This document shows, piece after piece, positions 13,201 to 57,130 of a stretch of DNA of 64,000 nt. This DNA comes from Verrucomicrobiota bacterium (GTDB lineage Bacteria; Verrucomicrobiota; Verrucomicrobiia; Limisphaerales; JAEYXS01). Each line of letters opens with the position of its first letter. Positions within the stretch are counted from its first letter, which is position 1. A model generated the notes under the pieces. That model saw only the letters and a program-made list of their open reading frames with translations. It made no database searches and was not told the DNA's origin. The stretch lies in contig JAEYXS010000121.1 in the NCBI GenBank assembly GCA_023431185.1, positions 6,261 to 70,260 on the forward strand, in the 5' to 3' direction. Position numbers and translations under genes: made by a program.

Positions 13201-14528
13201 GCACCATCCAGGCTCTTGCCATTCGCCAGCTTCACCGTTGCCCCCGGCGGTAACGCGGTCACTTCAATCCCGCCCATGCCCGCTTTCAAACGCCGATGAT
13301 CCGTGCTTGCCCAATACCCCAGTCCCGCCACGAAGATCAGCAACAGGGTCAGCAGCACCGCCACCGTCCTCCGTGCGACTCGTTGCGGCTTCGTCGTCTG
13401 CGGCACTTTCTCGGCCGGCCCCACTGGCTTGAATCCCTTGCTGTCGATGACGAACTCCATCGGCGGCTGCGCCAGCCGGGTCGTCGTCTTGGACTCCGGC
13501 CCATCAATCTGCATCAATGGCGCCAGTTCCGTCGGTGGCAGATCTGAATGTTCCTTTGGCGCTGCATCCGCCACCACTTCCCCGGCCCGGGTCGTCGTCA
13601 GCCCCGCCGCTTCCAGTCCCGCCGTGTCCGCCAGCCCCAGACGTTGCAACACTTCCAACGCACTCTGCGGACGTTTCGTCGGATCTTTCGCCAGACACGC
13701 CGCTACCGTCTCCTCCCACTCCGGCGGGATCGGCTTGCCCATGATGCCTAGTTGCTTCCTCCGCTCCGCCATCGTCGGCGGGATCTTCTCCCGCACCTGC
13801 GTCATGATCTCACCCGTGAAGAACGGCGGCTTGCTCGTCAGCAATTCAAACAGCGTCGCACCTAGCGAATAGATATCATCCAGCGCCGAAGCCGCCTCAC
13901 CCAAGGCCTGCTGCGGGCTCATGTAAACCAACGTCCCGCTCGCCCCATGCACTGCGGATGACACCCGCGTCATGTTATCACTGATGCTCCGCGAGATGCC
14001 GAAATCCGCGATCTTCAACACCCCCTTGTTGTTCAACATCAGGTTCGCCGGCTTCAGATCCCGATGCGCCACCCGCGCCTCCTTGTGCGCGTAATCCAGC
14101 GCCAATCCGAGCTGCTTCACCCACACCGCCAGATCGGACACCTCGAACACATGCGTCGGCTGGCACACCCGCAGATTGGAAAGCGTATCCCCCGCCACAT
14201 ACTCCATCGATATCCCCGCGCAATGCTCATCCTGCGCGAAGTCATAGATGCGCACGATGTTCGGGTGTGTCAGCTCCAGGCTCCGGCGCGTCTCCCGCTT
14301 CAGACTCTCCACCGCCGCCTTGTCGTGATACACGATATCCGGCAGGAACTTGAACGCGATATCCCGGTCCAGCTCATCATCATGCACCAGCCACACCACC
14401 CCCATGCCGCCACGACCCAGCACCCGCTTCAGCGTGTATCGCTTCAATACCTTCTGCCCGGCTACCAAACCTCGAATCGAGGAATCGGAACCGTAATCGT
14501 CAAAAGGTTGAAAGCCTTCCGTCGGCAT
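10278..14528 (-). CDS. Ser/Thr protein kinase - TM - PEGA-domain array - C-terminal FGE/SUMF1-like domain
   Basis: Kinase motifs GRGGMGVVW, HRDLKPANL, IADFGIS and YMSPQQ. TM segment VAVLLTLLLIFVAGLGYW. About a dozen ~70-aa PEGA-like repeats (e.g. PPGATV.. G.TP..). C-terminus has VSWNDATAFCQWL and GNVWEWCQD, typical of the FGE-sulfatase fold. Confidence 0.85.
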   Translation of the reverse strand: MPTEGFQPFDDYGSDSSIRGLVAGQKVLKRYTLKRVLGRGGMGVVWLVHDDELDRDIAFKFLPDIVYHDKAAVESLKRETRRSLELTHPNIVRIYDFAQDEHCAGISMEYVAGDTLSNLRVCQPTHVFEVSDLAVWVKQLGLALDYAHKEARVAHRDLKPANLMLNNKGVLKIADFGISRSISDNMTRVSSAVHGASGTLVYMSPQQALGEAASALDDIYSLGATLFELLTSKPPFFTGEIMTQVREKIPPTMAERRKQLGIMGKPIPPEWEETVAACLAKDPTKRPQSALEVLQRLGLADTAGLEAAGLTTTRAGEVVADAAPKEHSDLPPTELAPLMQIDGPESKTTTRLAQPPMEFVIDSKGFKPVGPAEKVPQTTKPQRVARRTVAVLLTLLLIFVAGLGYWASTDHRRLKAGMGGIEVTALPPGATVKLANGKSLDGAGKIMDLAPGVYDVVVEKADHEPRKFSLEVNEGKFTALPKVELLAHLGSVVLVSDPAGARFRIGGAGVQPDAEGKLVAKLPPGVHEITAEYAQWPTVTRQVTVTKDAELKESFEFYPGRVEITSDPAGAKVLQNGKERGETPLVLTNEPPGGVLFTLVKDDFNQETVRGEVRGKQTLRLTRQLTKEQGTLLLSSSLPGVNLYIDGRPLGQLGASLKMETNVSPGRHEITAILRDWPKQEQIVEVSRGKVSPVQFDFAPAAVMVSSEPPGATVILRGVPMERTPYTMNEVKPGAFNLLLQMEGYDPVSIETNVLSGETLKLHAVLPRMSRPFRIRTNPADAMLAMDGIPLTNRPPSFTVGNHTLRIERDGYETREVPVEIKAGGLNDFGEYVLERTAGELQLVVMPASATYEVFVNGASKRAKSAELLSGIPTGRHKVLVKAEGYDSKIVDVEVLKNQTLREEVMLVRSKGALRIVTIPEGAGYSLSGPDQVMRSGKTPKDEPQLPTGTYQVAFTKEGFEATNLTVRVDNQGTQAAEVSLIRSRVPFRIQVNLAGAAFKLTGPDGYYEEGTLPLPVKALPTGSYKLEAMLEGYDAVKQEFELKKGENRPISVNLQRSKGTLLVKITPVEARAELRGASFNRAVASGDPLGDIPTGDYQLVSSYRQWSVTNRVSIQSRQTNEVIVALPFGRVRIESVPEKAVVMRGSEEVGMTPWVSDELPLGAAKFQLRLPGHRFVDVVATVQPQKTTEVKSKLERYPGPQPGMTEWVNSLGMRFVPVGNVWVCVWETRKKDFEAFYKATRHNAGPGWNNPGFKQTASEPVVAVSWNDATAFCQWLTEAEVKGKVLEQAIYRLPTQAEWLQIQKEGYAAGPYLWGKVWPMPSGTANLADNVSYDRHSFTAPTASYFSSRNGVYDLIGNVWEWCQDGEGNQRTVLGGSWMQYHGSDYAPAMQLNLAVDTKAQDIGFRVVLVPMPMN

Positions 14529-19577: not shown

Positions 19578-20804
19578 TCATCTCGGATCCACCACCCGCC
19601 CCATGAACAGACAAGCCCCGCTCGCCTTGTGCTGGATTGCAAACAAAAACGGCCGGTCCACCCGTACCTCGATCGGTTTCGGTGGCTCCAAATCAATCCC
19701 TCCCATTATCACATTCTGAATCGAGACTGCGGCAGCTTCCGTTCCCTCCTCATCCACCTTAAGATAAGCCTGATGCAGCAACTTCGACAAAGCCAGATAA
19801 TCATCCCCTCGGCGGGGCGCTATGCCCTCAAAGTTTGCGGAACCCTTCGGCTCATCAAAAGCCTGCTTGATTCCAAAATCCTTCATCACCTCGCTCAAAT
19901 CATAGGTCGGGGTCGCCAGTTCGAACTTCGGCAGAAAAAGCCGGACCTCTTGCACCGGCAGACTCTGACACACAGCCAGCATCTCCTGTGTGATTCTCCT
20001 TTCCATTTCGGCCAGCCCGTCCCGGCCGTCGGGCAGCAAGATCAAGAACTGCACTTCCCTGCCGACATAAGGCATGGCCACCACACAAAACCCGTCCTCT
20101 TTTCGATAACCCAAGCTCGCCAACTGCTCCATCGTCGGCACTTCCTCGGGGATTTGGCCCCGTACATAAAATGGCGCATCATGGGTTTCCGACTTTCCGA
20201 ATTGATTCTCCCATCTCGCTTTCAAGTAAATGGCATTCACCAGCACCAACCGGGTATCCTGGTCCATTGCTTCGGGAGAGATCACGTCCCTGATTCTTCC
20301 TGCTGTCTGCTCTTCCACCCAGCCATTGATCACCTTGGCCGCTAGAGCCGGATCGCTCACGTAATCCAGCGCTTCCAACGTCGTCCCATACTTCCTGCTC
20401 AAAAGCGAAAGAAACGGCTGCCGAAATTCAAACCCTTTCTGTCCATACAACCGGTTCGCCATGCTGAGGACAAACGGCGCTTTCTCCCCTTTTCTCGACG
20501 AGTTCAAATGCTCATTCCCTTGGACTTCCACCGTCATCAATTCCAGATCGATCCGCAACGACTCAAAGGAATCGTGCAGCTCCCCTCCATCCTCCGGATA
20601 ATGCAACACCTTCTGCATCTCCGCCCACGTCTCACCTCCGGCCCCTGCATAAACCATCGCCAGCACACTTTGGATGGAATACGGCGATAACAGGGCATTC
20701 TCCCCCGGCGTCGTCGCCAGTGTGAGCAGCTCGACCCCCAGCGAATTGATTGCCTGCGCCGCCGCAGCGGTCGGCTGGTTCAACTTCTCTTGTGTAATTC
20801 CCAT
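19578..20804 (-). CDS. serpin family protein (no signal peptide seen)
   Basis: Hinge/RCL EEGTEAAAVS followed by VDRPFLFAI. Length 408 aa. Starts directly with serpin helix-A-like sequence. Confidence 0.85.
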   Translation of the reverse strand: MGITQEKLNQPTAAAAQAINSLGVELLTLATTPGENALLSPYSIQSVLAMVYAGAGGETWAEMQKVLHYPEDGGELHDSFESLRIDLELMTVEVQGNEHLNSSRKGEKAPFVLSMANRLYGQKGFEFRQPFLSLLSRKYGTTLEALDYVSDPALAAKVINGWVEEQTAGRIRDVISPEAMDQDTRLVLVNAIYLKARWENQFGKSETHDAPFYVRGQIPEEVPTMEQLASLGYRKEDGFCVVAMPYVGREVQFLILLPDGRDGLAEMERRITQEMLAVCQSLPVQEVRLFLPKFELATPTYDLSEVMKDFGIKQAFDEPKGSANFEGIAPRRGDDYLALSKLLHQAYLKVDEEGTEAAAVSIQNVIMGGIDLEPPKPIEVRVDRPFLFAIQHKASGACLFMGRVVDPR

Positions 20805-33116: not shown

Positions 33117-34904
33117 ATGGCCGTGATAACGAACATTTCGACGTATCAGTTTGCCGAACTAAGCGACCTCAAGTTGTTGCGGGAGAAACTCCGTAACCAA
33201 TGCAACGACCGTGGTCTCAAAGGCACCATTCTGCTCAGCACGGAAGGCATCAACATGTTCGTCGCCGGTGCCCGTGCGGATATCGATGAACTCATCGCCG
33301 GCCTGCGCGCCATTCCCGGCCTGGAAAACCTCACGCCGAAGTACAGCGAGAGCGAGCACCAGCCCTTCTCCCGCATGCTTGTGCGCATCAAGAAGGAGAT
33401 CATCGCCTTCGGCGTCGAAGGCATCAATCCCGCCCGCCGCACCTCACCCAAGCTCACCGCGAAAGAACTAAAGCAATGGCTGGATGAAGGCCGCCCCGTC
33501 ACTTTGCTCGATACGCGCAACGATTACGAAGTGAAGCTCGGCACGTTCCGCAATGCTCTGCCCATCGGCATCGATAATTTCCGCCAATTCCCCGAGGCCG
33601 TACGCCAGCTCCCCGCCAGCATGAAGGAACAGCCCATCGTCATGTTCTGCACCGGCGGTATCCGTTGCGAAAAAGCCGGTCCCTTCATGGAGCGCGAAGG
33701 TTTCTCCAAGATCTACCAGCTCGATGGCGGCATCTTGAAATACTTCGAGGAATGCGGTGGCGACCATTACGACGGCGAGTGCTTCGTCTTCGATCAACGC
33801 GTGGGCGTGGACCCCGCCTTGCGCGAGACCGATTCCACGCAATGCTTCAACTGCCTCACACCCCTCACCGAGGCCGATCAGGAAGACGCGCGCTACGTCC
33901 CCTCCAAGTCCTGCCCCTACTGCTTCAAGACCAGCGAGCAGCAGATGGCCGAGAATATCGCGCAACGCCACGCCGCCATCCGTAAGGCCACCACACCCCT
34001 GCCCGGCAGCCTCGCCTACGATAACTACCGCCCCGTCAGTGTGCCCTCCACTTGCGATGGTCTGACCGTCCTCGATTTTCTCGGCACCATCCTCGATCAC
34101 ATCTCGCGTGAAGAATGGCTCGGCACCCTCTCCCAAGGCCGCATCCTGAACCACCTGCGCCTGCCCGTGACGGCGGAACATATCGTCCGCACTGGTGAGC
34201 GCTATCTACACCTGCTCCCTGCCATCACGGAACCCGATGTGAATGCCGACATCCGCATCTTGCATGAGGATGAGGCCATCATCGTGGTGGAGAAGCCCGC
34301 ACCCCTGCCCTTGCATCCCAGCGGCCGCTACAATCGCAACACGCTGCAATCCATTTTACACACCGTCTATCATCCGCAGAAGCCGCGTCCCGGCCATCGC
34401 CTCGATGCCAACACGAGCGGCGTAGTAGTCTTCACCCGCACCCGCCATTTCGCCGGCAAGCTCCAGCCACAGTTCGCCCGCGGTGAAGTGGAAAAAATCT
34501 ACCTCGTCAAAGCCCTCGGCCATCCGGCCGCAGATTCTTTTCACTGCGATGCCCCCATCAGCACCGAGCCCGGTGAAGTCGGCAATCGCGAAGTGGATGA
34601 AGCCAACGGCCTGCCTTCCCGCACGGAATTCAAAGTCATCGAGCGTCTCGCCGATGGCACTTCCCTGCTGGAAGCGCGTCCCCTGACCGGCCGCACCAAC
34701 CAGATCCGCGTGCACCTCTGGGAACTCGGCCTCCCCATCTGCGGTGATCAGGTATATCTCCCCGGCAAGAAACTCGGTGACGTTCAAACCATCACCATCG
34801 AGGATCAGCCGCTCTGCCTCCATGCGTGGAAACTCAGCTTCAAACACCCGCTGCTCCATCAGCGCGTCACGTACGAGACCAGCAAGCCCGCCTGGGCAGG
34901 CTAA
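33117..34904 (+). CDS. fusion protein: TrhO/YceA-like rhodanese domain (tRNA U34 hydroxylase family) + RluA-family pseudouridine synthase
   Basis: N-terminal half has STEGINMFVAG and MFCTGGIRCEKA (E. coli YceA has MYCTGGIRCEKA, from memory) plus a Cys-rich tail. C-terminal half has HRLDANTSGVVVF, the RluA-type catalytic Asp motif. Confidence 0.8.
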   Translation: MAVITNISTYQFAELSDLKLLREKLRNQCNDRGLKGTILLSTEGINMFVAGARADIDELIAGLRAIPGLENLTPKYSESEHQPFSRMLVRIKKEIIAFGVEGINPARRTSPKLTAKELKQWLDEGRPVTLLDTRNDYEVKLGTFRNALPIGIDNFRQFPEAVRQLPASMKEQPIVMFCTGGIRCEKAGPFMEREGFSKIYQLDGGILKYFEECGGDHYDGECFVFDQRVGVDPALRETDSTQCFNCLTPLTEADQEDARYVPSKSCPYCFKTSEQQMAENIAQRHAAIRKATTPLPGSLAYDNYRPVSVPSTCDGLTVLDFLGTILDHISREEWLGTLSQGRILNHLRLPVTAEHIVRTGERYLHLLPAITEPDVNADIRILHEDEAIIVVEKPAPLPLHPSGRYNRNTLQSILHTVYHPQKPRPGHRLDANTSGVVVFTRTRHFAGKLQPQFARGEVEKIYLVKALGHPAADSFHCDAPISTEPGEVGNREVDEANGLPSRTEFKVIERLADGTSLLEARPLTGRTNQIRVHLWELGLPICGDQVYLPGKKLGDVQTITIEDQPLCLHAWKLSFKHPLLHQRVTYETSKPAWAG

Positions 34905-34970: not shown

Positions 34971-36197
34971 TTATCGCTGCTGCTCCCTTACCCTCGGTAT
35001 CAAGGAATCCCGGCTGGGCACGTTCGCGCCCTTCTCTTTAGGATTCTCGTCTTTCTTTTTATCTTCCTTGAAAGCCCCCCGCAGGAACCAGTGCTTCCGC
35101 AGTCCTTGCAGCATGAAATCTGCATTCGTCACCGTGGAGGAAATCTCCGAAAGGATGTTCGTGTTCGCCTGCACCTGCGCGTTCAGATTGCTGGTGATGG
35201 AGGCCAGATGCGTCAGCGAGACGTTCAGATTGGAGACCAGCAAGGCCACATGGTCATTCGCATTCGTCACGATCTGATTCACCGAGCCTACGGTGCCGTT
35301 TGCCGTCACCAGTGTCTTGTCTAGTTGCGTCATGACGACATTTGCATTCGTCAGTGTGTTCTTTGCCGCCGTGATCGTCAGTTCCAGCTCGCTGCTGATA
35401 TTCGTCGGGATGAGCCATTCCCCCAAAGAACCTTTCGGATTCTTCAGATTCTCCGTTATGAATACGATATTGGAAGCCACCGGCCGGATATCCGCGATGA
35501 TGTGGTTCGCATTCGACATGGCCGAACTGCTGCTGTTCAGCGTGGCTGCGAGCTGGTTCGTCAGGCCCAGGATATTCGGCAGAGCATCCTCCACCTGTTT
35601 CGCCAATTTCTCCAGACGGTCGTTGATGGCCGGGGCCTCTTCCGCGTGCAGCCAGAATTTGGAATCCATTTTATGCGGGATATAGGCCGACGTTTTTTCA
35701 TCCCACATGCCGCTCACGATGGTTTTCACCCGTTGCCCAAAAAACCAGTTCGTCACCATTTTTTCCTCATAGGTGGCCTTGCCACCATTGCCTTTGGTGA
35801 CCTCGATGAAACGGTTGCCCAACAAACCGTCCGCAGAAACCTTGGCCACCGAGCCCTTGGTCCACAAATAGCCGAAATGCGGTTCCTTAACCTCAAATTC
35901 CACGTAGACGTTGAAATAGTAATCATCTGGTGGCTGTGGTTTGATGACCGTGATATTTCCCACCTCAAATCCCATCATCTTCACCGGATCACCCACCTTC
36001 AAACCCGCCGCCGAGTTCACAAACGTGAAATACTTCACCTTGGTCTTGAACCAGCCACGTTTTTCCGCCGTGTTCCGGAAGTAAAAGCCAAAGCCGGCCA
36101 GCAGGATCAGCGTGGCCAGCGCCACAAACAATCCCACCGTCCATTCGAGGCGGCTCAAACGGGTGCGCAACCGCGGTGTCAAATCCTGCAAAGCCAT
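34971..36197 (-). CDS. MlaD/MCE-family protein with long C-terminal helical extension
   Basis: N-terminal TM, MCE-like GLKVGDPVKMMGFEVGNI, and a long Asn/Thr/Ala-rich helical tail. Confidence 0.75.
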   Translation of the reverse strand: MALQDLTPRLRTRLSRLEWTVGLFVALATLILLAGFGFYFRNTAEKRGWFKTKVKYFTFVNSAAGLKVGDPVKMMGFEVGNITVIKPQPPDDYYFNVYVEFEVKEPHFGYLWTKGSVAKVSADGLLGNRFIEVTKGNGGKATYEEKMVTNWFFGQRVKTIVSGMWDEKTSAYIPHKMDSKFWLHAEEAPAINDRLEKLAKQVEDALPNILGLTNQLAATLNSSSSAMSNANHIIADIRPVASNIVFITENLKNPKGSLGEWLIPTNISSELELTITAAKNTLTNANVVMTQLDKTLVTANGTVGSVNQIVTNANDHVALLVSNLNVSLTHLASITSNLNAQVQANTNILSEISSTVTNADFMLQGLRKHWFLRGAFKEDKKKDENPKEKGANVPSRDSLIPRVREQQR

Positions 36198-36213
36198 AAT
36201 ATTATTCCATCAA

Positions 36214-37002
36214 TCAATTTTCACGCAGCACATCACGCAACAGCGGGTCTTCACTGGCGTGCAACTCGGACATGCCGCCGATCCGTCGCCAGGCGGCTTC
36301 ATGCAACAGGGCGAACTGCCGGCCTGCCGCCACCCAAGGTGGCAGATGATTCGTCACCACCACGATGGTCATCGGTTTGTCCCCCACGATCGGGTGCCCG
36401 CGCCAGAGCATATTGACGGTTTCCTGCCACCAGTCCCGCTCGCTGAAATCCACACCCGCCAGCGGATTGTCCAGCAAAAGCAATTCCGGCGACATGGCCA
36501 GCGCCCGCGCCAGACTCGCCCGCTGCCGGTCAGTCCGGGTCAGCGCGCCGGGCAATTGCCCGGCCATGTTCTCGACCCCTGCGAACTTCAGCAGTTCATC
36601 CACCCGTTCCTGGGCCTCTTCCACCCGGCAATCCCGATGGTAGCACACCGGCAACGCGATATTCTCCGCGATGGTCAGTTTATGCAGCAGCCGTGCCCCG
36701 GCTTCAAAGACCAGTCCTACCCGCAGACGCTGCTTCATCAAGTTCGCCTCACCCACCGCCCAAGGGTCCGTTCCGAACACCTCGATCTGGCCAGACAACG
36801 GCTTCTGCAACATGGCCAGCGAGGCCAGCAACGTACTCTTGCCGCTGCGGTGCATCCCGCCCACCACCCAGAAATCACCCAAGTTCACCTGTAAATCCAC
36901 GCCTTTTAGCAACGGCCCCTCCCCCCGGCCTTCCAAGCCCAAATCCGCCGCCTGCAACTTCAAGCAAGTTACTGCCGTATTTTGTGGTTTGGCATCGGCC
37001 AT
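36214..37002 (-). CDS. ABC transporter ATP-binding protein (MlaF-like)
   Basis: Walker A GGMHRSGKST and Walker B LLLLDNP. Start at Met46 (37002), 2 nt after the upstream permease stop. Confidence 0.8.
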   Translation of the reverse strand: MADAKPQNTAVTCLKLQAADLGLEGRGEGPLLKGVDLQVNLGDFWVVGGMHRSGKSTLLASLAMLQKPLSGQIEVFGTDPWAVGEANLMKQRLRVGLVFEAGARLLHKLTIAENIALPVCYHRDCRVEEAQERVDELLKFAGVENMAGQLPGALTRTDRQRASLARALAMSPELLLLDNPLAGVDFSERDWWQETVNMLWRGHPIVGDKPMTIVVVTNHLPPWVAAGRQFALLHEAAWRRIGGMSELHASEDPLLRDVLREN

Positions 37003-37004
37003 GA

Positions 37005-37862
37005 TTAAACGAGCAAAAACAGGGTGATGAAAATGGCATCCACCAGGACACAACCGATTGTCCCTGAAACCACCGCCCGGGAAGTCGCCTGCGCCACCTG
37101 CTCCAGCCTTAGGGGTTGGGCCAACCCTTGGTAACAAGTGACCACGGCGATGATGGCTCCGAAAGAAAGCGTCTTCAGCGCCACCAGCACAAAATCCTGC
37201 CAGGTCAGCGCCGAGGCAATCTGTTCCGCATACGCCACCGGTGTCAGGGGCACGTTCTGCACCAGCACAAAGGCATAACCGCTGAGCAGCGCCACCATGA
37301 TGAGATAGATTGTCAGCGCGAAAATTGCCACCGCCTGGCCGATCACTCTTGGCACAACCAGCAAATGGATTGGATCAATGGCCAGTGCTTCAAGCGCCTC
37401 GATCTCACCCGTTGCCCGGGACATTCCCAGTTCGATGACCGTGGTGGTGCCGATGCGGGCCAAAACGATCAGCGCCGTGGTCAGCGGCCCCAGTTCCCGC
37501 ACCACCACCGCGACCATCACCGGCCCGGTGAACTCCTGCGCGCCCACCCGGGTCAGCAAAGCCACTGTCTGTCCAACGATGACGAAACCCAAGGCCACCC
37601 CAAGGAAAGCGATCATGGGCAGCAGTTTCAGCCCCGATTCATAGATCTGGGTTCGTATCAGCGGGCGGATGACGGCCTTCGCAGAACCAAACTTGGACAA
37701 TGTGGTGCCGAGGGTGATGAGAGCAAACGCACCCACTCCCCGGCCGGCTTCGACGAGTCCCAAGATGGCGCGGCCGACCAAATCCAGATAAACCCGAAGC
37801 ATCCGGCCGGGCAGCCGGAACAGGGAATTTCGTACTGGGATCGTTGCTGGAGTCTGGGCCAC
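37005..37862 (-). CDS. MlaE-family ABC permease
   Basis: Multi-TM. VRELGPLTTALIVLARIG resembles the MlaE signature. GTG start. Confidence 0.8.
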   Translation of the reverse strand: MAQTPATIPVRNSLFRLPGRMLRVYLDLVGRAILGLVEAGRGVGAFALITLGTTLSKFGSAKAVIRPLIRTQIYESGLKLLPMIAFLGVALGFVIVGQTVALLTRVGAQEFTGPVMVAVVVRELGPLTTALIVLARIGTTTVIELGMSRATGEIEALEALAIDPIHLLVVPRVIGQAVAIFALTIYLIMVALLSGYAFVLVQNVPLTPVAYAEQIASALTWQDFVLVALKTLSFGAIIAVVTCYQGLAQPLRLEQVAQATSRAVVSGTIGCVLVDAIFITLFLLV

Positions 37863-37910: not shown

Positions 37911-40900
37911 TTATTCCTTCCCGACTTGGATGCCGCCAATCTGCACTGAGCCGTCACCCGGGACAAGGACGAGCACTTCACCGGCAAAATCTTTGGCCGG
38001 TGAGACACTCAACTTGAACTCCTGCCACTTGTCCGTCGGGCGCACTTGCAAATCAAAGACCCGCTCACTGGGGTCGAGGAAAGAACGCGCCGAAAGCAAG
38101 AAAGCCGTGTTTTTATCGGATTTCGCCCAAATGCGTACTGTTTGCTTCTCCCGGTTGCGGACCACAAAACGCGGACCAGCCAGCTGGCTTTGCACCGTCA
38201 GGCTGCCCGTTGTCTTGATTTGCAAGGCCGTCGTGCCCGGAGTCGGTCCTTCAGGCAGTTTAGCGTAATCCACCGACATCGCCAATGCACGATTCCGGTC
38301 CACCCAGCCTTTCGGCAGCCACCCATGCGAGGCATTGTTGTCCCGGTTGCGCAGATTGATCTCCATGCCATCGTTGCCGATGGACGCCATCGCCCGCGGA
38401 TCAAGCCCCATAGCCTTGTTCATCAGCTCATACGCCGGTTCGAACTGGTTGGCCGCCTGCAACACCCCCGCGCGCAGCCAGAGCACCTCTGGATTTTGCG
38501 GTTCATAGCGCAATGCCAAACTGGTGAAGTAATCAGCCGCCGCTGGATCCTTTAGTGAGCGGCCATGCCGGGCCAGCGCCAAGGCATGATTAGGCTGGAT
38601 CAGCAGGACACTATCGATGGCGGCATCGTCCGCAGCCAGCCGCTGGGCCAAATAATCCTTCGTATTCAACTGGGTGAACGCCATCACCGTGCGGTCCACC
38701 GGATCTTTCAGATACCATTTGGCCCAAGTGGCATAAAGATTATCAGCAGAAGCCGCATCGATCGCCTGCCTAACTGCGTTCAGATTGGTCCATGAATCAG
38801 CCAGGGCATTGGCCCCCCCTTCTTCACCAAGCTGATAACCGGCCACACCTTCGGTGAGGGTACGAAACCAATCAGGAACCGTTCCCGGCAAGGCCACCAG
38901 CCACAGCCTGGCCGTCTTGTCTTCTGAAGCGGTGACGATGAAACGTCCGTCACCGCTGAAATTGGCATCACGGACCAGACCATCGTGACGTAATGGCTCG
39001 GTCACCGGTTTCCAGCTCGCCGTATCCCAGATCATGGCGGCATTGGATTTTGAGACGGTCACCAGAAACGAACCGTTGGCGCTAAAACTCACCGCACGTA
39101 CTTCAGCGTCATGCCGCAATGGTTCAGCCGCCGCTTTGCCGGCATCGGCCGTCCAGACACGGGCCGTCTTGTCCTCCGAGACACTGACCACAAATCGCTG
39201 GTTGGAACTGAAAGCCACGGCATTGACGGCCGCATCATGACGCAATTCCGGGGTTAACGGTTCACCGCTGGCCGTCAACCAGACCCGGGCGGTCTTGTCA
39301 TCCGAGGCCGTGGCGACCATGCGGCCGTCGGGACTAAAAATGGCGGAACGCAACTCGCCTTTGTGCGCGAAGACGGGGCCGAGCGCCTGGCCGTTGGCCG
39401 CATTCCAGACTTTGGCCGTCTTGTCTGCGGAGGCCGTCAACACCGTTTTCCCATCGGGACTGAATGACGCCGTCCGGACCGCACGATCATGCTTCATGGC
39501 CTCCCCGATCTGCTTTCCGTCCGCGGTATTCCAAAGTTTCGCCGTGCCGTCTTCGGAAGCAGTCAACAAAACCGTACCATCCTGCCGGAATGCCACGGTG
39601 TTAACCTGCCGGTCATGCGTCACCGGCTGCCCGACCGCTTCGCCAGTATCCGTCTTCCAGACCCGGCCATAACGGTCTGCCGCCGTGGCCACGTAACGGC
39701 CATCAGGACTGAAGATCGCCATCGTGACGCGATAATCATGCTTCAACGGACTGCCCAACAACTGGCCCGTGGCGACATCCCAAACCCGCACCGTACGGTC
39801 ATCCGCCACGGTCAGCACCCGGTCGCCAGCACGGTTGAAGACTGCTTGCGTAAGCTGCGTTTCGTGATTAAGCGCCAAAGACAGGGGGCGTCGTTCCACT
39901 GCACTCCAGACACGTGTCATCCCGCTCGACCCGTCGGCACAACCTGCGCTGACCCAGAGACCGTCCGGGCTGAAATCCACCCATTTCACATCACCCGTCA
40001 GCTCCATGGGCTCGCTCAAGGGCAAACCCGTTTTCAAATCCCAAAGCCGGGCGGTACGGTCAGCCGAGGCCGTGGCCAGCACTCGCACATTCGGGCTGAT
40101 GGCAATCATGTTGATGGCCGCACCGTGCCGGATCGTCTGGCCTATCTGTTTGCCGGTGGGCACCTCCCAAACTTTAGCCGTACCGTCACTGGAGCAGGTG
40201 ACCACGTGCCGGCCATCCTGGGTGAACTTCACCTGATTCACCCAATCATCATGCTTCAAGATCTGCGGTGCCGCATTCGTGCTGCCCATTCCCCATATCT
40301 TCGCGGTCTTGTCGCCTGAAGCGGTGGCCACAAATTTTGCATCCGGACTGAACGAAGCGTAATAGACACCACCATCATGCGTCAGCGGTTGGCCTGTCGG
40401 CTGACCGTTGACAGCATCCCAGACCTGTGCCGTGCTGTCCGAGGTCGTCAACGCCAGCTTGCCGTCATGGCTCAAGGTCGCCCAACGCACCGAGCCCGTC
40501 TGTTTCAAGGGTTCCGTGATCGGCTGGCCGGTGGCGGCATTCCAGACCCGGGCGCTCTTGTCGTGTGAGGCTGTGATGACGGATTTGCCATCCGCACTGA
40601 AACTGGCGGCATACACCCAGTCTCCGTGCTTCATCGGTGCACCTTGCTTCTGACCCGTGGCCGCTTTCCAAAGCTGGGCTGAACCGTCGTCCGAAGCAGT
40701 CACAATTAATTCCCCATCCGGACTGAACTGGGCGTACCGGATATCCTTGCTCGAAGATAGCGTCACCTTCTTGGTCAAGGCTTGCTCACCTGTCTCCCAC
40801 AACACCGCCTCTTTGCCAGAAACGGTCAGCAATGTCTTGGTATCCGGGCTGAACCGCGTCATCACCACCGGTGCCTCATGTTTTAACGCCGCGTAACGCG

Positions 40901-42119
40901 GCAAAGGCCAGTTGCGATTGGCCAACAAGGAGAGGATTCTTGCCTGCGCCGACGCATTGTCGGCCGCACGCGCCAAAGAAGTGGAAAGATACGCCATGCC
41001 CTGCGCCTGACGGTTTTCTCCGATCAACCGGCTGGCTTCCACAAAGTAAGACACGGACAGTGCTTTGGAAACCTGTCGCTCGCTCTGCTCCGCCGCATCC
41101 CGTGCACGTTGCGCCGCCTTCGCCGCCTCCTCGGCATCCTGCTTGGCCTTGTCTGCCGCATCGCGCTGTTTCTTTTCTTCCGCCCGGGCCAATTCCGCTT
41201 CCTTTAGACGCTGGTTGGCTAGATTGGCCGACGCCTCAGCCTCTTCGCGGGCTTTCTCTGCAGCAGCATTTGCCGCCACAGCTTTTTCGCGCTCCACGGC
41301 CTCACGTCGGAGCGCCACTTCAGCTTTCTTTTTCTCCTCTTCCGCCACCGCTCGGGCTACATCGGCTTTCTGCCGCTGGCTGATGGCCTCTTCTCGCTGG
41401 CGCTCGGCCGATGCCCGGGCGCCTTCAGCTTCGCGCTTAGCCAAAATCGCCTGACCGGCCAGCACCAGAAAGCCGCACATGACCAGCATCACCACCACCA
41501 TCGCCAACTGCATCCGGCGATGTCGCCGTTCCGCATCGCGCTGCTTCAGATCGCTGAAGTTCACGCCGAACATGCCGGCGAGGAGCTTCAGCTTCGCATT
41601 CTCCCGACCATCCTTGCCCCGGCGCGCATCCGCCGCGATCGGTTCAGTGCGTTCCTCGGTGATCCGTTTGTTGGCGTCCACCTTGTATCGCACCGGCTCC
41701 GGAAAACACTCTTCCAAACCCAGTTCCGGATGCTCGGAAGCATAAGGTTCACCATCAACGATCAGACACAATACGCGATCTTCCCGACCAATGGATTTGA
41801 AGGACTTGATCTCTTCGTTCACCCAGCGGGAAGCCACGGCCCGCGGCGAGCAGACCACAATCAGGAAGCGCGACTGCATGAGCGCCTGCGTCAGTTTCTC
41901 ACCCAAGTCAGCCGAACTCGGCAACTCATCACGGTCACGGAAAATGGGATAGGCCCGCTTGGGAACCACGCCCACCTTGGAGGTGCGGCCAACCAGAACC
42001 TTCGGCACGCCATAGGTTTCCAGCGATTTGTGCAGCCAGTCAGCCCAATTCTGATCGGCATGACTGTAGCTGATAAACGCCCAGTATTTATACTCTTCCT
42101 CTGGCGGGTGAGTGGACAT
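37911..42119 (-). CDS. TIR domain - TM - coiled coil - 16 WD40 repeats - TPR-like region - C-terminal beta-rich domain
   Basis: N-terminus YWAFISYSHAD..FRDRDEL..FLIVVCSP..SRWVNEEI is TIR-like. TM is MQLAMVVVMLVMCGFLVLAGQAILA, preceded by RRHRR. E/K/A-rich coiled coil. I counted 16 units of the form H...V..A.FSPDG..V.TAS.D.TA.VW. Confidence 0.85.
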   Translation of the reverse strand: MSTHPPEEEYKYWAFISYSHADQNWADWLHKSLETYGVPKVLVGRTSKVGVVPKRAYPIFRDRDELPSSADLGEKLTQALMQSRFLIVVCSPRAVASRWVNEEIKSFKSIGREDRVLCLIVDGEPYASEHPELGLEECFPEPVRYKVDANKRITEERTEPIAADARRGKDGRENAKLKLLAGMFGVNFSDLKQRDAERRHRRMQLAMVVVMLVMCGFLVLAGQAILAKREAEGARASAERQREEAISQRQKADVARAVAEEEKKKAEVALRREAVEREKAVAANAAAEKAREEAEASANLANQRLKEAELARAEEKKQRDAADKAKQDAEEAAKAAQRARDAAEQSERQVSKALSVSYFVEASRLIGENRQAQGMAYLSTSLARAADNASAQARILSLLANRNWPLPRYAALKHEAPVVMTRFSPDTKTLLTVSGKEAVLWETGEQALTKKVTLSSSKDIRYAQFSPDGELIVTASDDGSAQLWKAATGQKQGAPMKHGDWVYAASFSADGKSVITASHDKSARVWNAATGQPITEPLKQTGSVRWATLSHDGKLALTTSDSTAQVWDAVNGQPTGQPLTHDGGVYYASFSPDAKFVATASGDKTAKIWGMGSTNAAPQILKHDDWVNQVKFTQDGRHVVTCSSDGTAKVWEVPTGKQIGQTIRHGAAINMIAISPNVRVLATASADRTARLWDLKTGLPLSEPMELTGDVKWVDFSPDGLWVSAGCADGSSGMTRVWSAVERRPLSLALNHETQLTQAVFNRAGDRVLTVADDRTVRVWDVATGQLLGSPLKHDYRVTMAIFSPDGRYVATAADRYGRVWKTDTGEAVGQPVTHDRQVNTVAFRQDGTVLLTASEDGTAKLWNTADGKQIGEAMKHDRAVRTASFSPDGKTVLTASADKTAKVWNAANGQALGPVFAHKGELRSAIFSPDGRMVATASDDKTARVWLTASGEPLTPELRHDAAVNAVAFSSNQRFVVSVSEDKTARVWTADAGKAAAEPLRHDAEVRAVSFSANGSFLVTVSKSNAAMIWDTASWKPVTEPLRHDGLVRDANFSGDGRFIVTASEDKTARLWLVALPGTVPDWFRTLTEGVAGYQLGEEGGANALADSWTNLNAVRQAIDAASADNLYATWAKWYLKDPVDRTVMAFTQLNTKDYLAQRLAADDAAIDSVLLIQPNHALALARHGRSLKDPAAADYFTSLALRYEPQNPEVLWLRAGVLQAANQFEPAYELMNKAMGLDPRAMASIGNDGMEINLRNRDNNASHGWLPKGWVDRNRALAMSVDYAKLPEGPTPGTTALQIKTTGSLTVQSQLAGPRFVVRNREKQTVRIWAKSDKNTAFLLSARSFLDPSERVFDLQVRPTDKWQEFKLSVSPAKDFAGEVLVLVPGDGSVQIGGIQVGKE

Positions 42120-43642: not shown

Positions 43643-44761
43643 CTAACTCCGCTCGCAAACCACCACGGAACCAACCACCCGGTCATTATCCCGCACCGGA
43701 AAGGCCCGAGCCACCACTTTGAACGGCTGCCCACCGCGCACCTTCAAGGTGGCTGACACCCCGATCAGATCACGGCCTTCCTTCAAAGCGGTCACAAAAG
43801 GAGACACCTCACCGCTCTGCTCCGGCTGTACCACATTGGCCAGCGGCTCACCGATCAGATCATTCACCGTCATCCCGGACATCTTGGCCGCTGGCGGATT
43901 GACCCGGATGATGCGCCCCGTCCGGCTGATGACGAAGATGGCATCCCCGATGGAATGCAGGATCTGCTCGAAGTGCCGGAACTGCCGTTCCAAAATGGAC
44001 TGCGACCATTTGCGTTCGAGGTTTTCCAGTGTCAATGTGTCGTTGATTTTGATGATCTCTTCGGTGCGGGCCGTGACCTTTTCCTCGAGCTGCTCATTGG
44101 CCATGCGCATGGCGTCTGCCGCCAGCCTGCGGGACCGCAAATCATGCCGGATCAACCAGAAGATCAGAGCAATCAATCCCACATTCACACCCGCCACCAC
44201 ATACACGGTCCAGCGCGTGGACTGGGCCGCCTGAAAGTTCTCGCGATCCCGCTGTTGCAACAATTGCGCCTGCTCATCCTTGAATTTCACGACCAGCCGC
44301 TTGATCTCCCGCAGGGTCTGGTCCGCGGCATCCGAACTGATCAATTTCTTGGCCGCTTCAAAACCCTCTTCCTTCTGTGCGGCCACCACCTTGCGGGCGA
44401 ACTCCACCCGTTTGCCCGCCAGACCTTCCAGCTCTGTCACCCTTTGCTGCTGTTGCTCATTTCCCTTGGTCATGGATTTGGCCACCTCGAGATGTTCCAC
44501 CATCTCCGAAAACGCCTCGCGATAATTCGCCTGGTCCCGCTCATCTCCGGAGAGCACGTAGTTGCGCAGGTTCGCTTCGGCCGTTTGCAAGGCGGTTTCG
44601 ATGGCCACGGCTTCCAGGATGACCGCGTGGGTGCTGTTCACCCAGTCGCTGCTGATCTCGGACTCGCGCGCGTTCTTCAGGGCGATCACCGCCACGAAAA
44701 TCAGCAGCGCGGCCACCGCGCCGAACAGCGCCATCATTCTTTGCTCGATGTTGTCTTTCAT
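43643..44761 (-). CDS. CHASE3 - TM - PAS protein without a recognisable output domain
   Basis: TM1, then CHASE3-like W.NSTH.V..........A E...R.Y.L.G.. (WVNSTHAVILE..AEANLRNYVLSGDE), TM2, coiled linker and a PAS-like C-terminus. The ORF ends right after the PAS domain. Confidence 0.7.
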   Translation of the reverse strand: MKDNIEQRMMALFGAVAALLIFVAVIALKNARESEISSDWVNSTHAVILEAVAIETALQTAEANLRNYVLSGDERDQANYREAFSEMVEHLEVAKSMTKGNEQQQQRVTELEGLAGKRVEFARKVVAAQKEEGFEAAKKLISSDAADQTLREIKRLVVKFKDEQAQLLQQRDRENFQAAQSTRWTVYVVAGVNVGLIALIFWLIRHDLRSRRLAADAMRMANEQLEEKVTARTEEIIKINDTLTLENLERKWSQSILERQFRHFEQILHSIGDAIFVISRTGRIIRVNPPAAKMSGMTVNDLIGEPLANVVQPEQSGEVSPFVTALKEGRDLIGVSATLKVRGGQPFKVVARAFPVRDNDRVVGSVVVCERS

Positions 44762-54186: not shown

Positions 54187-56655
54187 TTATTCACGGGTAA
54201 TGGTTTCGTCTAAGTTAAGCAGCACACGCGAGACCGTCATCCACGCCGCGAGCTGCACGGAATCATACTTCGCTTTTTCACCAACCAATTCTTTCGCCTC
54301 ATTCGGCGTCTGCGCAAATGCCGCCTTCTCCACCTTCAGCAATTCAGCCAGTCTCTCACGCTCCACCACGTCAGGTGAACGCGAGGTACAAAGCTTGAAC
54401 ACATAATCAATCCTCGCCGTATCGTCCTTCGGCCCATCTCGCATCACGCGCTCCGCCAACGCCTGCGCCAATTCATAATACGCCTGGTCGTTCAGCAACG
54501 TCAGCGCTTGCAGCGGCGTGTTCGAGCGCGGCCTCCGGGTACACGCGCTGAACCCATCCGGCGCATCGAACACCATCAGTGCGGGATTCGGCGTCGCCCG
54601 CCAAAAGAACGTGTACATCCCGCGCCGATACCGGTCCTCACCCGTGCTGGGCACCCACTCTCGCCTCATCTGCCCCAGCGACATCACACCGTCTGGCTGG
54701 GGTGGAAACACACTCGGTCCGCCCACCTTGCGTGAGAGCAATCCGCTCGCCGACAATGCCGAATCGCGCACCAGTTCCGCCTCCAGTCGCAGCCGGTTCT
54801 GCCGCGCCAGCAACTTGTTCGTCGGGTCCACCGTCTCCAAGTCCTTGCGCACATTGGACGACTGCCGGTACGTCGCCGAGGTCGCGATGAGCTGGTGGAT
54901 ATGCTTCTGGCTCCAGCCGCTTTCCATGAACTCCACCGCCAGCCAGTCGAGCAATGCCTGATTCTTCGGGAGCGCGCCTTGCGAACCAAAATCATTTTCC
55001 GTCTCCACGATGCCACTGCCGAAATACACCTGCCAGATCCGGTTCACCGCCACCCGCGCCGCCAACGGATTCTGCTTGTCCACCAGCCACCGCGCGAAGT
55101 CCAGCCGGTCGGGCTTCTCCGCCTTCAGCGGATGCAACACCTTCAGCACCCCCGGCGACATCTTGTCCGCTGGCCGCGTGAAATCACCTTTGATGAACAA
55201 GAACGTATCGCGCGGTTCCTTGCGCTCCTGCATCACCAGCGTAGTCGTCACGCTCGGCACCGCCTTCTTCAATCTCGCCGCATCCGCCTGCTTCTTCTTG
55301 TAGCCCGCATCCTCCGCCAGGATCGCTTCGGCCAGCAATTTCTTCTGCGCCGCCGTGCGTTTGTCGGCGGCCACTCCCAATGCCTTTTGAGCATCCCCCT
55401 TCAGTTTCTTACGTGCCGCCTCATCCAGACCGGCTTCCCACCCAGCCACCTTGCCTTCAGCCGCCTTCACTTGCGCGGCCAGCTCGGCATCTGCCTGCTT
55501 CACCTTTTCCCGATGCTCCGCGAGCCTCTTGGCTTCCTCAGGCGACGGCAGGCTCAGTGTCGGCTCATCCGCGTTATTCAAGAACGCGAACATCTGGTAA
55601 TATTCCTTGTGCGAGATCGGATCGAACTTGTGGTCATGGCATTGCGCGCACGAAACTGTCAGCCCCAGAAACACCGTGCTCGTCGTCGCGACCCGGTCAA
55701 AGATGGACTCGATCCGGAACTGCTCCTTGTCGATGCCCCCCTCCTGATTGATCTGGGTGTTTCGATGAAACCCCGTCGCCACCTTCTGCTCGGGTGTCGC
55801 GTTCGGCAACATGTCACCCGCGATCTGCTCGATGGTGAAGCGGTCGAACGGCATATCGGCGTTCATCGCATTGATCACCCAATCCCGGTATTTCCAGATC
55901 TGACGCGGCGCATCGATGCTGTAACCGTTCGAATCCCCATAACGGGCTGCATCCAGCCAATGCCGCGCCCAGCGTTCGCCAAAATGTGGCGAAGCCATCA
56001 GTTGCTTCACCCACGCCTCGTAAGCCTGTTCGCTCGAGTTGGCCAGATAAGCGTCCACCTCGCTCAACGTCGGCGGCAATCCCGTCAGGTCAAACGCCGC
56101 CCGGCGCATCAACGTCACCTTGTCCGCCTCAGGCGATGGCTTGATGCCTTTCTCCTCCAGCTTCGCGAGAATGAAATGATCGATCGGGTTCTTCGGCCAG
56201 TTCCTATCCTTCACCGACGGGATCGCCGGACGCTGCGGCACTTGATACGCCCAATGCGTCTTGGCTGATGCGTAAAAATCCTGCGGTTCGTCGTTCGCCG
56301 GAGCCACCGCCCCCTCATCGATCCACTTCGCGATGATCGCGATTTCCGCCTCCGTCAGCGGGGCCATCTTCATCGGCATCTGCTTCATCTCCGGCACCAT
56401 GCCCCGCACCGCCTGGATCAACCGGCTCTCGCTGCTCTTGCCCGGCACGATGGCCGGCCCGCGTTCCCCGCCCTTGAGCGCCAGCGCCACCGTATCCAGC
56501 CGCATCTTGGACATCTGCTCCGCTGCGCCGTGGCATTTGTAGCAATTCCGCGCGAGGATGGGTTTCACCTCTATCACGTAATCCACTGCCGCGCTCGCCG
56601 GCATTACGCCCGCGACCATCATCATCAGACCGGCAATGACGCCATTTCGTGCCAT
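54187..56655 (-). CDS. PSCyt/DUF1549/DUF1553 (planctomycete cytochrome c domain) protein
   Basis: CYKCHG near the N-terminus. DUF1549-like [19 protein letters not shown] and DUF1553-like [11 protein letters not shown]. Start taken at Met48 (signal-like [17 protein letters not shown]). Confidence 0.85.
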
Positions 56656-57130
56656 GTTCAAATAATCAGGTTTTACTGCCTCAATATAACCAAACCCCGC
56701 AAAAGAAACATGCAAAATCCCGCCAACCCGATGTGTCATTCTGTCGCCCCTGTTTTCCATTTTCCGTTCTTCCGTTGTCCTCATGTTTCGTCTCACTTCT
56801 ACTTTTCTGCCTCATACTTTAACAAGGTCACTAGGACAACCGCTGTCCTACCCCCTTTTCTTGAAAAATATTTTAAAACCACATAACCCGTTCCGTATGA
56901 AGTGCTTAACACTCAAATCACGCTTCAAAACCTGACCGTCGCAAATAAATAACAGTGTATCTCACAATTTGCCCGCATCTCGCCCAAGAACGTTTCCCAC
57001 TCATTATTAGGGGTGCGATCTCAAACGTCAGAGACCCGGTGGCTGTGCCGAGGCAACTGGCCCCTTGCTGCCAGATTCTCAGTAACAGTCGTCCGTGACC
57101 TCCGCCGCAGCCCCACTCATCATTGAATTC

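Follow-up and report, generated by a model that had tools for sequence, protein, structure and literature searches.

A receptor-like TIR protein with one transmembrane helix and a predicted giant WD40 ectodomain in Verrucomicrobiota

To our knowledge, the described bacterial TIR systems, namely Thoeris, SPARTA, the effectors of CBASS and Pycsar, and the NLR-like (nucleotide-binding, leucine-rich-repeat-like) proteins, all sense intracellular events. SARM1, plant TNLs, AbTir and SPARTA need a TIR oligomer for activity. The gene examined here lies at positions 37911-42119 of a 64,000-nucleotide stretch of contig JAEYXS010000121.1 from a Verrucomicrobiota bacterium; the whole of this stretch is called the window. 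As far as computation reaches, analysis of the gene supports the assignment of its product as a receptor-like TIR protein with one transmembrane (TM) helix and a giant ectodomain. The reading that fits best, and in which we have moderate confidence, is that of an outside-in type II TIR receptor making an NAD-derived signal; its topology, dimerization, activation by clustering, product and ligand are what we infer. The N-terminal TIR-TM module of the protein is referred to below as the cassette.

The closest described systems belong to Thoeris. In type VII a TIR protein is paired with the SLATT effector ThsH, and in type VIII with the effector ThsI, which contains CMP (cytidine monophosphate)-hydrolase and tetratricopeptide repeat (TPR) domains. 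Both types respond to canonical cyclic ADP-ribose (cADPR), occasional operons hold both effectors, and unvalidated 'SLOG and 4TM' effectors are listed as well (bioRxiv 10.64898/2025.12.03.692087). The same preprint makes no mention of transmembrane or WD40-bearing TIR proteins, and the available part of its TIR table does not contain the hallmark motifs of the cassette. The TIR domain studied here resembles Thoeris ThsB in being of the TIR_2/ThsB_TIR type with a Glu in the catalytic column. The likeness to types VII and VIII extends to the relatives of the protein, the neighboring partners of which carry SLATT-like modules of two TM helices (2TM) or TPR-S domains, with dual-partner loci (L040 and L073) among them. 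There are differences as well. Here a TM helix and a predicted ectodomain of ~1170 residues follow the TIR, whereas the ThsB proteins of the preprint are not described with a TM helix. The known ThsB proteins respond to phage infection. The present locus lacks an effector gene, and the cyclase-containing partner of the relatives is no listed Thoeris effector. Membership of Thoeris was rejected because the locus has no effector gene, no match to a Thoeris model and no defence island around it. By analogy, its mode of action is probably that of a Thoeris TIR to which an external input has been added.

The protein shares with the Toll-like and interleukin-1 receptors a single-pass arrangement, an ectodomain built of repeats and a predicted cytoplasmic TIR, the fold of which matches those of the Toll-like receptors (TLRs) TLR1, TLR2 and TLR15. 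The polarity is opposite, however, because the TIR is N-terminal, as in a type II protein, whereas the TLRs are type I. The ectodomain is composed of WD40, TPR-like and carbohydrate-binding-module (CBM)-like parts rather than leucine-rich repeats or immunoglobulin domains. Only the TIR is homologous; Pfam scans detected no leucine-rich repeat in the protein, and it does not qualify as a Toll-like receptor. Moreover, the TIR domains of TLRs are scaffolds, whereas this one looks like the enzyme type.

Bacterial PknB-like receptor Ser/Thr kinases have the same layout, with a kinase as the output in place of the TIR. One of them is encoded in the window (10278-14528, minus strand) and sets a precedent for an N-terminus inside the cell, a TM helix and a giant ectodomain. 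It consists of 1416 residues, with Pkinase at residues 31-294, a single TM helix at residues 383-409, repeated PEGA domains, CarboxypepD_reg and a C-terminal FGE-sulfatase domain. Relatives combining a Ser/Thr kinase with WD40 repeats occur among the WD40 matches (P0041 and P0050). Domain II of TolA is similar in that an N-terminal membrane anchor leads into a helix rich in Ala, Glu and Lys and long enough to span the periplasm, but TolA contains neither a TIR nor propellers, whereas the present protein has no Tol-Pal context and scores far below the TolA cutoff. The STAND (signal transduction ATPases with numerous domains)/NLR-like proteins of TIR-NTPase-WD40/TPR layout, which occur in bacteria and plants, also join a TIR effector to a repeat sensor and are expected to be activated by induced oligomerization; bacterial conflict systems often employ WD40 repeats and TPRs as sensors in the cytoplasm (PMC7159879). 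The present protein lacks an NTPase switch, and its TIR is separated by a TM helix and a coiled coil from a sensor that would lie outside.

The accessible parts of three surveys (PMC7075850, PMC8195603 and PMC7159879) do not describe the cassette architecture. An earlier note on this DNA knew of no characterized prokaryotic outside-in TIR receptor with a double-propeller ectodomain; the literature searched contains none, nor does it describe a TIR coupled to an extracytoplasmic sensor, although a mention in Burroughs et al. 2015 (NAR 43:10633) is possible.

Architecture of the protein

The stretch 37911-42119 is a single minus-strand open reading frame of 1402 codons and a stop, according to the open reading frame list and the translation. 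It starts with ATG at 42119 and ends with the stop codon at 37911-37913. The coordinates and residue numbers of the earlier note are right once they are taken on the minus strand, which it had left unstated. The parts of the gene, and what defines each, are as follows (AF2, AlphaFold2; pLDDT, predicted local distance difference test; PDB, Protein Data Bank).

37911-42119, minus strand: whole open reading frame; TIR, TM helix, stalk, 16 WD40 blades, helical repeat, CBM-like jelly roll
41715-42089, minus strand: TIR core, residues 11-135 (Pfam TIR_2 and ThsB_TIR; AF2; Foldseek against the PDB)
41811-41825, minus strand: W99-x-x-x-E103 motif, with the codon of E103, the putative catalytic Glu, at 41811-41813
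41520-41714, minus strand: family-specific TIR extension, residues 136-200 (conserved residues; AF2 packing on the TIR)
41436-41519, minus strand: single TM helix, residues 201-228 (hydropathy; family conservation)
41070-41435, minus strand: predicted Ala-heptad, E/K/A-rich coiled-coil stalk, residues 229-350 (heptad Ala count; orthologue conservation)
40923-41069, minus strand: helical linker or cap before the propellers, residues 351-399 (family consensus)
38901-40922, minus strand: 16 WD40 blades, residues 400-1073 (Pfam WD40; blade parsing)
38385-38900, minus strand: helical TPR-like repeat, residues 1074-1245 (AF2 model mcbbb087253e3, helices at model positions 6-167)
37914-38384, minus strand: predicted C-terminal jelly-roll beta-sandwich, residues 1246-1402 (AF2, pLDDT ~93 here; Foldseek CBM folds)

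The matches on which this architecture is based are all far above the chance level. About 35 full-length homologues of 1371-1427 residues and 40-93% identity are found in Verrucomicrobiota metagenome-assembled genomes and in metagenomes, where they are annotated merely as 'TIR domain-containing' or 'WD40 repeat' proteins.

The N-terminal domain is assigned to the TIR superfamily by a sequence match above threshold and by its flavodoxin-like TIR fold. Pfam TIR_2 matches residues 15-133 with an E value of 5.4e-17 (62.9 bits against a cutoff of 28), and this match is overlapped by those of ThsB_TIR (E 1.3e-10, 42 bits against 21.2) and TIR (E 3e-5, 24.3 bits against 21.3). The AF2 model of residues 1-262, made from 23 family sequences, has a pLDDT of 89 and contains the TIR core, a three-strand-plus-helix extension at residues ~141-184 and one unbroken helix, residues 188-261, which runs through the membrane segment. 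When the model of the TIR was compared with the PDB by Foldseek, the top 37 matches were all TIR domains (probability 0.98-1.0), including those of TLR1, TLR15, RPP1, the SPARTA TIR-APAZ protein, TIR-1/SARM1, AbTir, RUN1 and L6, with TM-scores to the target of up to 0.68. The TIR-like domain that had been proposed for residues ~11-135 is thus borne out, with significant matches to both sequence profiles and structures.

In plant TIR NADases the catalytic residue is the Glu of the motif SxWCxxEL. The stretch S97-R-W-V-N-E-E103-I (SRWVNEEI, residues 97-104; the position of the E103 codon, 41811-41813, was checked) aligns with SKWCLMEL of L6 (3ozi), SSWCLDEL of AtTIR (3jrn) and STWCLEEL of Roq1 (7jlv). 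E103 was placed by single-sequence and profile searches of the PDB sequences. One pairwise alignment, that with SNC1, slips by one residue onto E102, but E103 is preferred because of the profile alignments and the canonical spacing between the Trp and the Glu. Neither the alignment of the orthologues nor either of the two cassette alignments contains a substitution of E103; conservation of W99 is 90% or higher, and W99xxxE103 matches the bacterial WxxxE motif. The proposal that E103 corresponds to the Glu of the S.WCL.EL motif therefore agrees with the alignments to AtTIR, L6 and Roq1 and with its invariance in all three family alignments, and the profile-to-PDB sequence alignment gives no sign that it is off the catalytic position. 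From these alignments the TIR looks to be of the enzyme type, with E103 as its putative catalytic Glu.

The TIR core is followed by an extension that is specific to the family. Its consensus, ECFP...TEPIAADAR.GKDG..NAKLKLLAG...LKQRD.ERR, ends in a basic juxtamembrane stretch and includes eight invariant residues (E137, E159, P160, A162, D164, R166, G182 and R194). In the AF2 model the extension is folded into three strands and a helix that pack on the TIR.

Residues 201-228 form the sole segment of transmembrane grade, with a mean Kyte-Doolittle hydropathy of 2.58, and are preceded by ERRHRR. The hydropathy profile of the 1402-residue protein contains neither a second hydrophobic segment nor an N-terminal signal-like one, in accord with the single hydrophobic helix after RRHRR and the lack of a signal peptide that had been reported. 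A hydrophobic segment is present at the same distance from the TIR in all 84 of the related loci that were fetched; it exceeds the hydropathy threshold in 82 of them, and in the other two, where it falls slightly below, it was recognized by inspection. The topology was judged from family statistics, by counting Lys and Arg in the 15 residues before and the 15 residues after the TM helix. The N-terminal flank is the more positive one in 133 of 133 non-redundant relatives (mean 6.4 versus 3.2). One TM helix, no signal peptide and a positive-inside bias across the family are the marks of a type II single-pass protein. The N-terminus is placed inside and the C-terminus outside because, in addition, the ectodomain modules are of extracytoplasmic type and an N-terminal TIR would need cytoplasmic NAD+. 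This predicted topology is supported across the family and is the only comfortable one. The earlier note had likewise put the TIR in the cytoplasm and the propellers outside. The charge bias in 133/133 relatives, the TM helix in 84/84 loci, the extracytoplasmic-type domains of sister proteins and the CBM-like fold speak for this arrangement, and neither hydropathy nor the family statistics give any indication of a cytoplasmic WD40 region.

Beyond the membrane, Ala occupies 15 of the 17 positions that are spaced by seven residues from A231 to A343, and these positions are invariant or nearly so among the orthologues. The stalk is therefore predicted to be a coiled coil in which Ala heptads, at least 17 in number, continue without a break over 113 residues or more, a length of ~17 nm or more at 0.15 nm per residue; the heptads agree with the E/K/A-rich coiled coil that had been noted at residues ~228-350. 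NCBIfam TolA matches with an E value of 3e-4, below cutoff, the scores being 19.9 bits against 213 and 16.4 against 59.45, and this likeness is compositional. Residues 351-399, between the stalk and the propellers, have the family consensus ALSxSDFxEAxRLIExG...LAYLSRSL.

The WD40 region is matched by Pfam WD40 with an E value of 8e-107 (345.6 bits, 14 scored stretches), and dozens of other beta-propeller families match as well. Manual parsing, guided by the terminal ...[KR][ILV]W motif, gave 16 blades of 41-45 residues each, with a mean pairwise identity of 35%. The number of units given in the earlier note was correct, but their bounds are shifted, to residues 400-1073 from its 413-1085. The 16 blades probably form two 8-bladed propellers. 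Tandem Repeats Finder detected no WD40 repeat array at the DNA level, which indicates that the blades are old and diverged; for the same reason, they were rejected as an instance of the hypervariable type of WD40 blades that undergoes concerted evolution.

The AF2 model of residues 1078-1402 (pLDDT 90) consists of helical repeats at residues ~1083-1245 and a beta-sandwich at residues ~1251-1401. The helical repeats, which correspond to the TPR-like region named earlier, give a weak TPR_19 match (E 1e-3). A C-terminal beta domain had also been expected, and is present in the model, but at ~150 residues it is smaller than the ~170 residues stated. The best Foldseek matches of this jelly roll are CBM4-2, CBM22, CBM11, CBM16 and CBM61 (E 1e-6 to 1e-5, probability 1.0, TM-score to the target 0.5-0.71), and domains of the same fold from Cry toxins and phage tailspikes also match, the E values of the whole set running from 1e-7 to 1e-5. 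On the strength of the model, the domain appears to have a carbohydrate-binding-module-like fold, whereas a CBM sequence family was not found among the Pfam models even at E <=1.

The TIR-TM cassette and its partner proteins

The protein is no rarity: its family has thousands of members. A search of 1.84 billion cluster representatives with the 234-residue module found at least 3,846 clusters, defined at 50% identity, at E <=1e-30. In the best 150 of these 3,846 clusters the module is always at the protein's own N-terminus, and the total lengths range from 208 to 1596 residues. When one genome per GTDB species was scanned, at least 583 stretches were confirmed. The cassette occurs in Verrucomicrobiota, Acidobacteriota, Alpha- and Gammaproteobacteria and Firmicutes. 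Over the first ~245 residues the identity is 50-67% in Acidobacteriota, Gamma- and Alphaproteobacteria, Magnetococcales and Verrucomicrobiota. No other part of the protein is as well conserved as the N-terminal module, which retains 50-76% identity from phylum to phylum, whereas the C-termini vary. After the TM helix the relatives carry WD40 propellers, TPRs (Dyella and Rhodanobacter), or PEGA, FG-GAP and BamB-like PQQ propellers; those from Pyrinomonadaceae have a helical domain of no assigned family. The PEGA, FG-GAP, BamB-like and CBM-like modules are typical of extracytoplasmic regions. In RefSeq the cultured examples are labelled just 'toll/interleukin-1 receptor domain-containing protein'. 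It is of consequence that the family includes cultured strains (Dyella, Rhodanobacter and Sinorhizobium), because this renders the receptor hypothesis directly testable.

A cassette is also found in a Gram-positive Firmicute, on plasmid pNP243 of Butyrivibrio fibrisolvens (L090:6983-9427), with 36% identity over residues 10-221. In such a host its C-terminal part would be truly extracellular. The 604-residue hypothetical protein encoded downstream of it matches neither of the two partner families described below.

Clustering of the neighboring genes of 82 distinct related loci revealed two partner families, A and B, that recur across phyla, mostly within ~2 kb of the cassette gene and on the same strand. 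Partner A (20 loci) has 590-830 residues and contains RyR, TPR-S ('Tetratricopeptide Repeats-Sensor') and a C-terminal adenylate/guanylate cyclase (Guanylate_cyc). Partner B, a SLATT-like protein of 4TM type (16 loci), has 500-720 residues and sub-threshold matches to SLATT/DUF4231 in two 2TM modules; in the NCBIfam and PADLOC scans of the partners all SLATT or 2TM matches were below cutoff. Loci L040 and L073 each carry both partner types beside one TIR-TM gene. The middle region of partner A is homologous to the N-terminal region of partner B (hhalign 94.8%, E 5e-8), and the two share a domain of ~170 residues with the motifs GH[RM], ALAxGxD..AE, LP.P and WDG...GGT. A profile of this shared domain added two loci, so that partners are found in 36 of the 82 related loci, in several phyla. 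Proteins that contain the domain are encoded, for example, at the following positions.

L005:5339-7618, minus strand: shared-domain protein
L088:3578-5908, minus strand: shared-domain protein
L038:11941-14262, plus strand: shared-domain protein
L017:7502-9328, plus strand: shared-domain protein
L046:8035-9852, minus strand: shared-domain protein
L089:11459-12016, plus strand: shared-domain protein

A standalone shared-domain protein of 185 residues is encoded ~2 kb downstream of the cassette gene at a Sinorhizobium megaplasmid locus. Two full-length orthologues of the protein studied here, with 52% (L005) and 42% (L088) identity, have a divergent partner A gene 93-413 nt upstream. No Pfam family matches the shared domain, even when E values up to 1 are admitted, and neither does any PDB sequence. 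It is called SLOG-like here from the resemblance of its motifs and from the 'SLOG and 4TM' effectors of the Thoeris preprint, its membership being putative, and it is a candidate sensor of the TIR product. The wiring of partners in the relatives thus mirrors that of Thoeris, at the level of analogy. The cassette and the shared partner domain are the most valuable by-products of the analysis, and the latter points to a new nucleotide-sensor domain.

Proposed mechanism

In the reading favored here, the ~200 N-terminal residues would constitute a cytoplasmic, enzyme-type TIR with its WxxxE motif and the family-specific extension. The TM helix would continue as the Ala-zipper coiled coil, which probably dimerizes the protein and would carry the sensor across the periplasm. 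The sensor, comprised of the 16 WD40 blades, the helical repeat and the CBM-like jelly roll, would bind an extracytoplasmic ligand, most likely one associated with glycans or the envelope. Because of the CBM-like fold and of the polysaccharide genes in the window (sulfatase, debranching enzyme and dehydratase), a glycan or envelope cue is no less plausible than a phage particle. Binding of the ligand would re-pack or cluster the stalks, and the TIR domains would thereby be aligned head to tail, in the kind of assembly on which the activity of known TIR enzymes depends. The active assembly would cleave NAD+ to an ADP-ribose-derived, cADPR-type signal. In many of the relatives the adjoining shared-domain or TPR-S partner would read this signal. 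Since there is no reader within 64 kb, the present genome may have a distant reader, or NAD+ depletion may itself be the output.

If this is true, the protein would be a testable bacterial analogue of Toll-like receptor logic, and would add an outside-in input, through a sensor of ~1170 residues, to NAD-derived signalling. A wider proposal is advanced tentatively, as one that may well prove wrong: the TIR-TM cassette would define a large overlooked receptor class with the TIR as transmitter. Recognition outside the cytoplasm by WD40, TPR, PEGA/FG-GAP, BamB-like or CBM-like ectodomains would yield an NAD-derived messenger, to be read by the SLOG-like domain, coupled either to cyclases for a relay or to SLATT pores for death. 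Such a class would correspond, in prokaryotes, to the outside-in signalling of Toll-like receptors. In the present lineage the receptor would then be a chromosomal, vertically inherited envelope or glycan sensor, possibly coupled to Mla, and not a mobile antiphage gene.

Several observations weigh against the outside-in receptor. The TIR of TLR2, which is non-enzymatic, likewise has a Glu in the column of E103; conservation of this residue permits catalysis, but is no proof of it. The charge bias around the TM helix is slight in the protein itself, with 6 Lys and Arg before the helix and 5 after it, and the CBM likeness is one of fold alone, at 10-16% identity. The cassette is present in just 9 of 72,556 plasmid records, mostly non-mobilizable megaplasmids, and in none of 50,697 phage records, a scarcity that is unlike typical mobile defence genes. 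PADLOC gave insignificant best matches to the protein (PDC-S66, 3e-5 over 49 residues; ThsB1, 0.025), and NCBIfam gave no significant defence match, with Thoeris type III ThcB4 at 18 bits against a cutoff of 220. The neighboring genes are housekeeping ones (Maf, DUF1802 and mlaEFD), with no known defence gene among them. A second TIR cassette or a partner was not found in the 64-kb window by tblastn and a six-frame profile search (best E 0.5), and eight of the ten orthologue loci have no adjoining partner. The Thoeris-style antiphage context to which the earlier note had alluded is therefore absent from this locus.

Gene neighborhood and alternative explanations

Upstream of the TIR gene, on the same strand, are genes for Maf, DUF1802 and a CHASE3-PAS protein. 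The last of these (43643-44761, minus strand) has 372 residues with CHASE3, a TM helix and PAS, is without a recognizable output domain, and occupies the same position in L001 and L085. Downstream, and also on the same strand, is a set of transporter genes of the ATP-binding cassette (ABC) type.

34971-37862, minus strand: mlaE-mlaF-mlaD-like ABC transporter genes (Pfam MlaE 3e-51, ABC_tran 1e-19, MlaD 5.5e-14)

These genes start 48 nt downstream of the TIR gene. Conservation of the neighborhood, which had been suggested as a check, holds in part: the mlaEFD genes are adjacent in six of the ten distinct full-length orthologue loci (the window, L001, L085, L003, L005 and L006), including loci where the upstream genes differ, but not in the other four (L002, L086, L087 and L088), nor in the wider cassette family. 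The adjacency is treated as a lineage-specific association, and a functional link is putative. The MlaD homologue has 408 residues in the window and 668 in L003, a locus of 43% identity (L003:12320-15991). The listed mlaF open reading frame overlaps mlaE by 133 nt, and the true start of mlaF is probably internal.

The mlaEFD genes bear on the explanation that the protein is an envelope-spanning structural or tethering protein, which would work with MlaEFD and reach from the inner membrane to the peptidoglycan or the outer membrane, its TIR being a protein-interaction module. Their position directly downstream on the same strand in six of ten orthologue loci, even with differing upstream genes, argues for such a role, as do the TolA-like composition of the stalk (NCBIfam TolA, E 3e-4, sub-cutoff), the chromosomal housekeeping context with vertical inheritance within Verrucomicrobiota, and the role of many TIR domains as scaffolds. 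Scans for promoters and terminators, together with RNA folding, detected no terminator in the 48-nt gap between the TIR gene and mlaE, a result that fits a tether and is itself uninformative on co-transcription. However, the wider cassette family is without linkage to Mla, and its members are wired to SLATT and TPR-S/cyclase partners that are typical of nucleotide signalling. Furthermore, conservation is much higher in the TIR module, with its W99xxxE103 motif and its extension, than in the ectodomain, a pattern that fits an enzyme or transmitter better than a tether. We consider the tether unlikely. These partners also bear on a self-contained suicide switch for abortive infection or stress, in which the same receptor would deplete NAD+ without a messenger or a reader. 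The lack of a partner in the 64-kb window and beside eight of the ten orthologues would be expected of such a switch, and the NAD+-depleting TIR domains of SARM1 and SPARTA are among the structural matches. Against it stand the shared-domain partners of two orthologues and of 36 of the 82 family loci, the fact that the partner search spans just 64 kb of the genome, and the position of the gene outside any defence island; a pure suicide switch is improbable on this evidence.

Both of these explanations keep the sensor outside the cytoplasm. If the topology were wrong, the helix would tether a wholly cytoplasmic TIR-WD40 protein or fail to insert, and the WD40 and TPR regions would sense cytoplasmic proteins, for example those of phages. 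It is true that WD40 repeats and TPRs are frequent cytoplasmic sensors in bacterial conflict systems (PMC7159879), and that the charge bias is weak in this protein taken alone. Nevertheless, a single TM helix of ~25 residues with a hydropathy of 2.58 cannot leave both ends of the protein on the same side, and there is no second segment that could re-enter the membrane. The positive-inside bias in 133 of 133 relatives, the PEGA, FG-GAP and BamB-like ectodomains of the sister proteins and the CBM-like C-terminus likewise oppose a cytoplasmic sensor. As for the reverse orientation, it is general knowledge about Sec/YidC insertion that export of a folded N-terminal TIR of 200 residues without a signal peptide would be highly unusual. 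A cytoplasmic sensor is accordingly given very little credence, and the outside-in type II receptor is preferred to all three alternatives.

Several other genes of the window deserve mention. A full-length bacterial serpin of 408 residues is encoded at 19578-20804 on the minus strand (Pfam Serpin, E 8e-98). GC skew is negative in every 2-kb bin of positions 1-64000 (-0.02 to -0.24), and because the cumulative skew falls monotonically the window contains no replication origin or terminus. The gene at 33117-34904 on the plus strand encodes a 595-residue protein in which a UPF0176/rhodanese module is fused to a pseudouridine synthase domain of the RluA type, an unusual joining of two modules of RNA-modification type. 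On the minus strand, a PSCyt1/PSCyt2/PSD1 protein typical of the Planctomycetes-Verrucomicrobia group is encoded at 54187-56796, and a 1454-residue debranching-type enzyme, composed of alpha-amylase, GDE_N and GDE_C domains, at 4982-9346; both are consistent with a Verrucomicrobial polysaccharide degrader.

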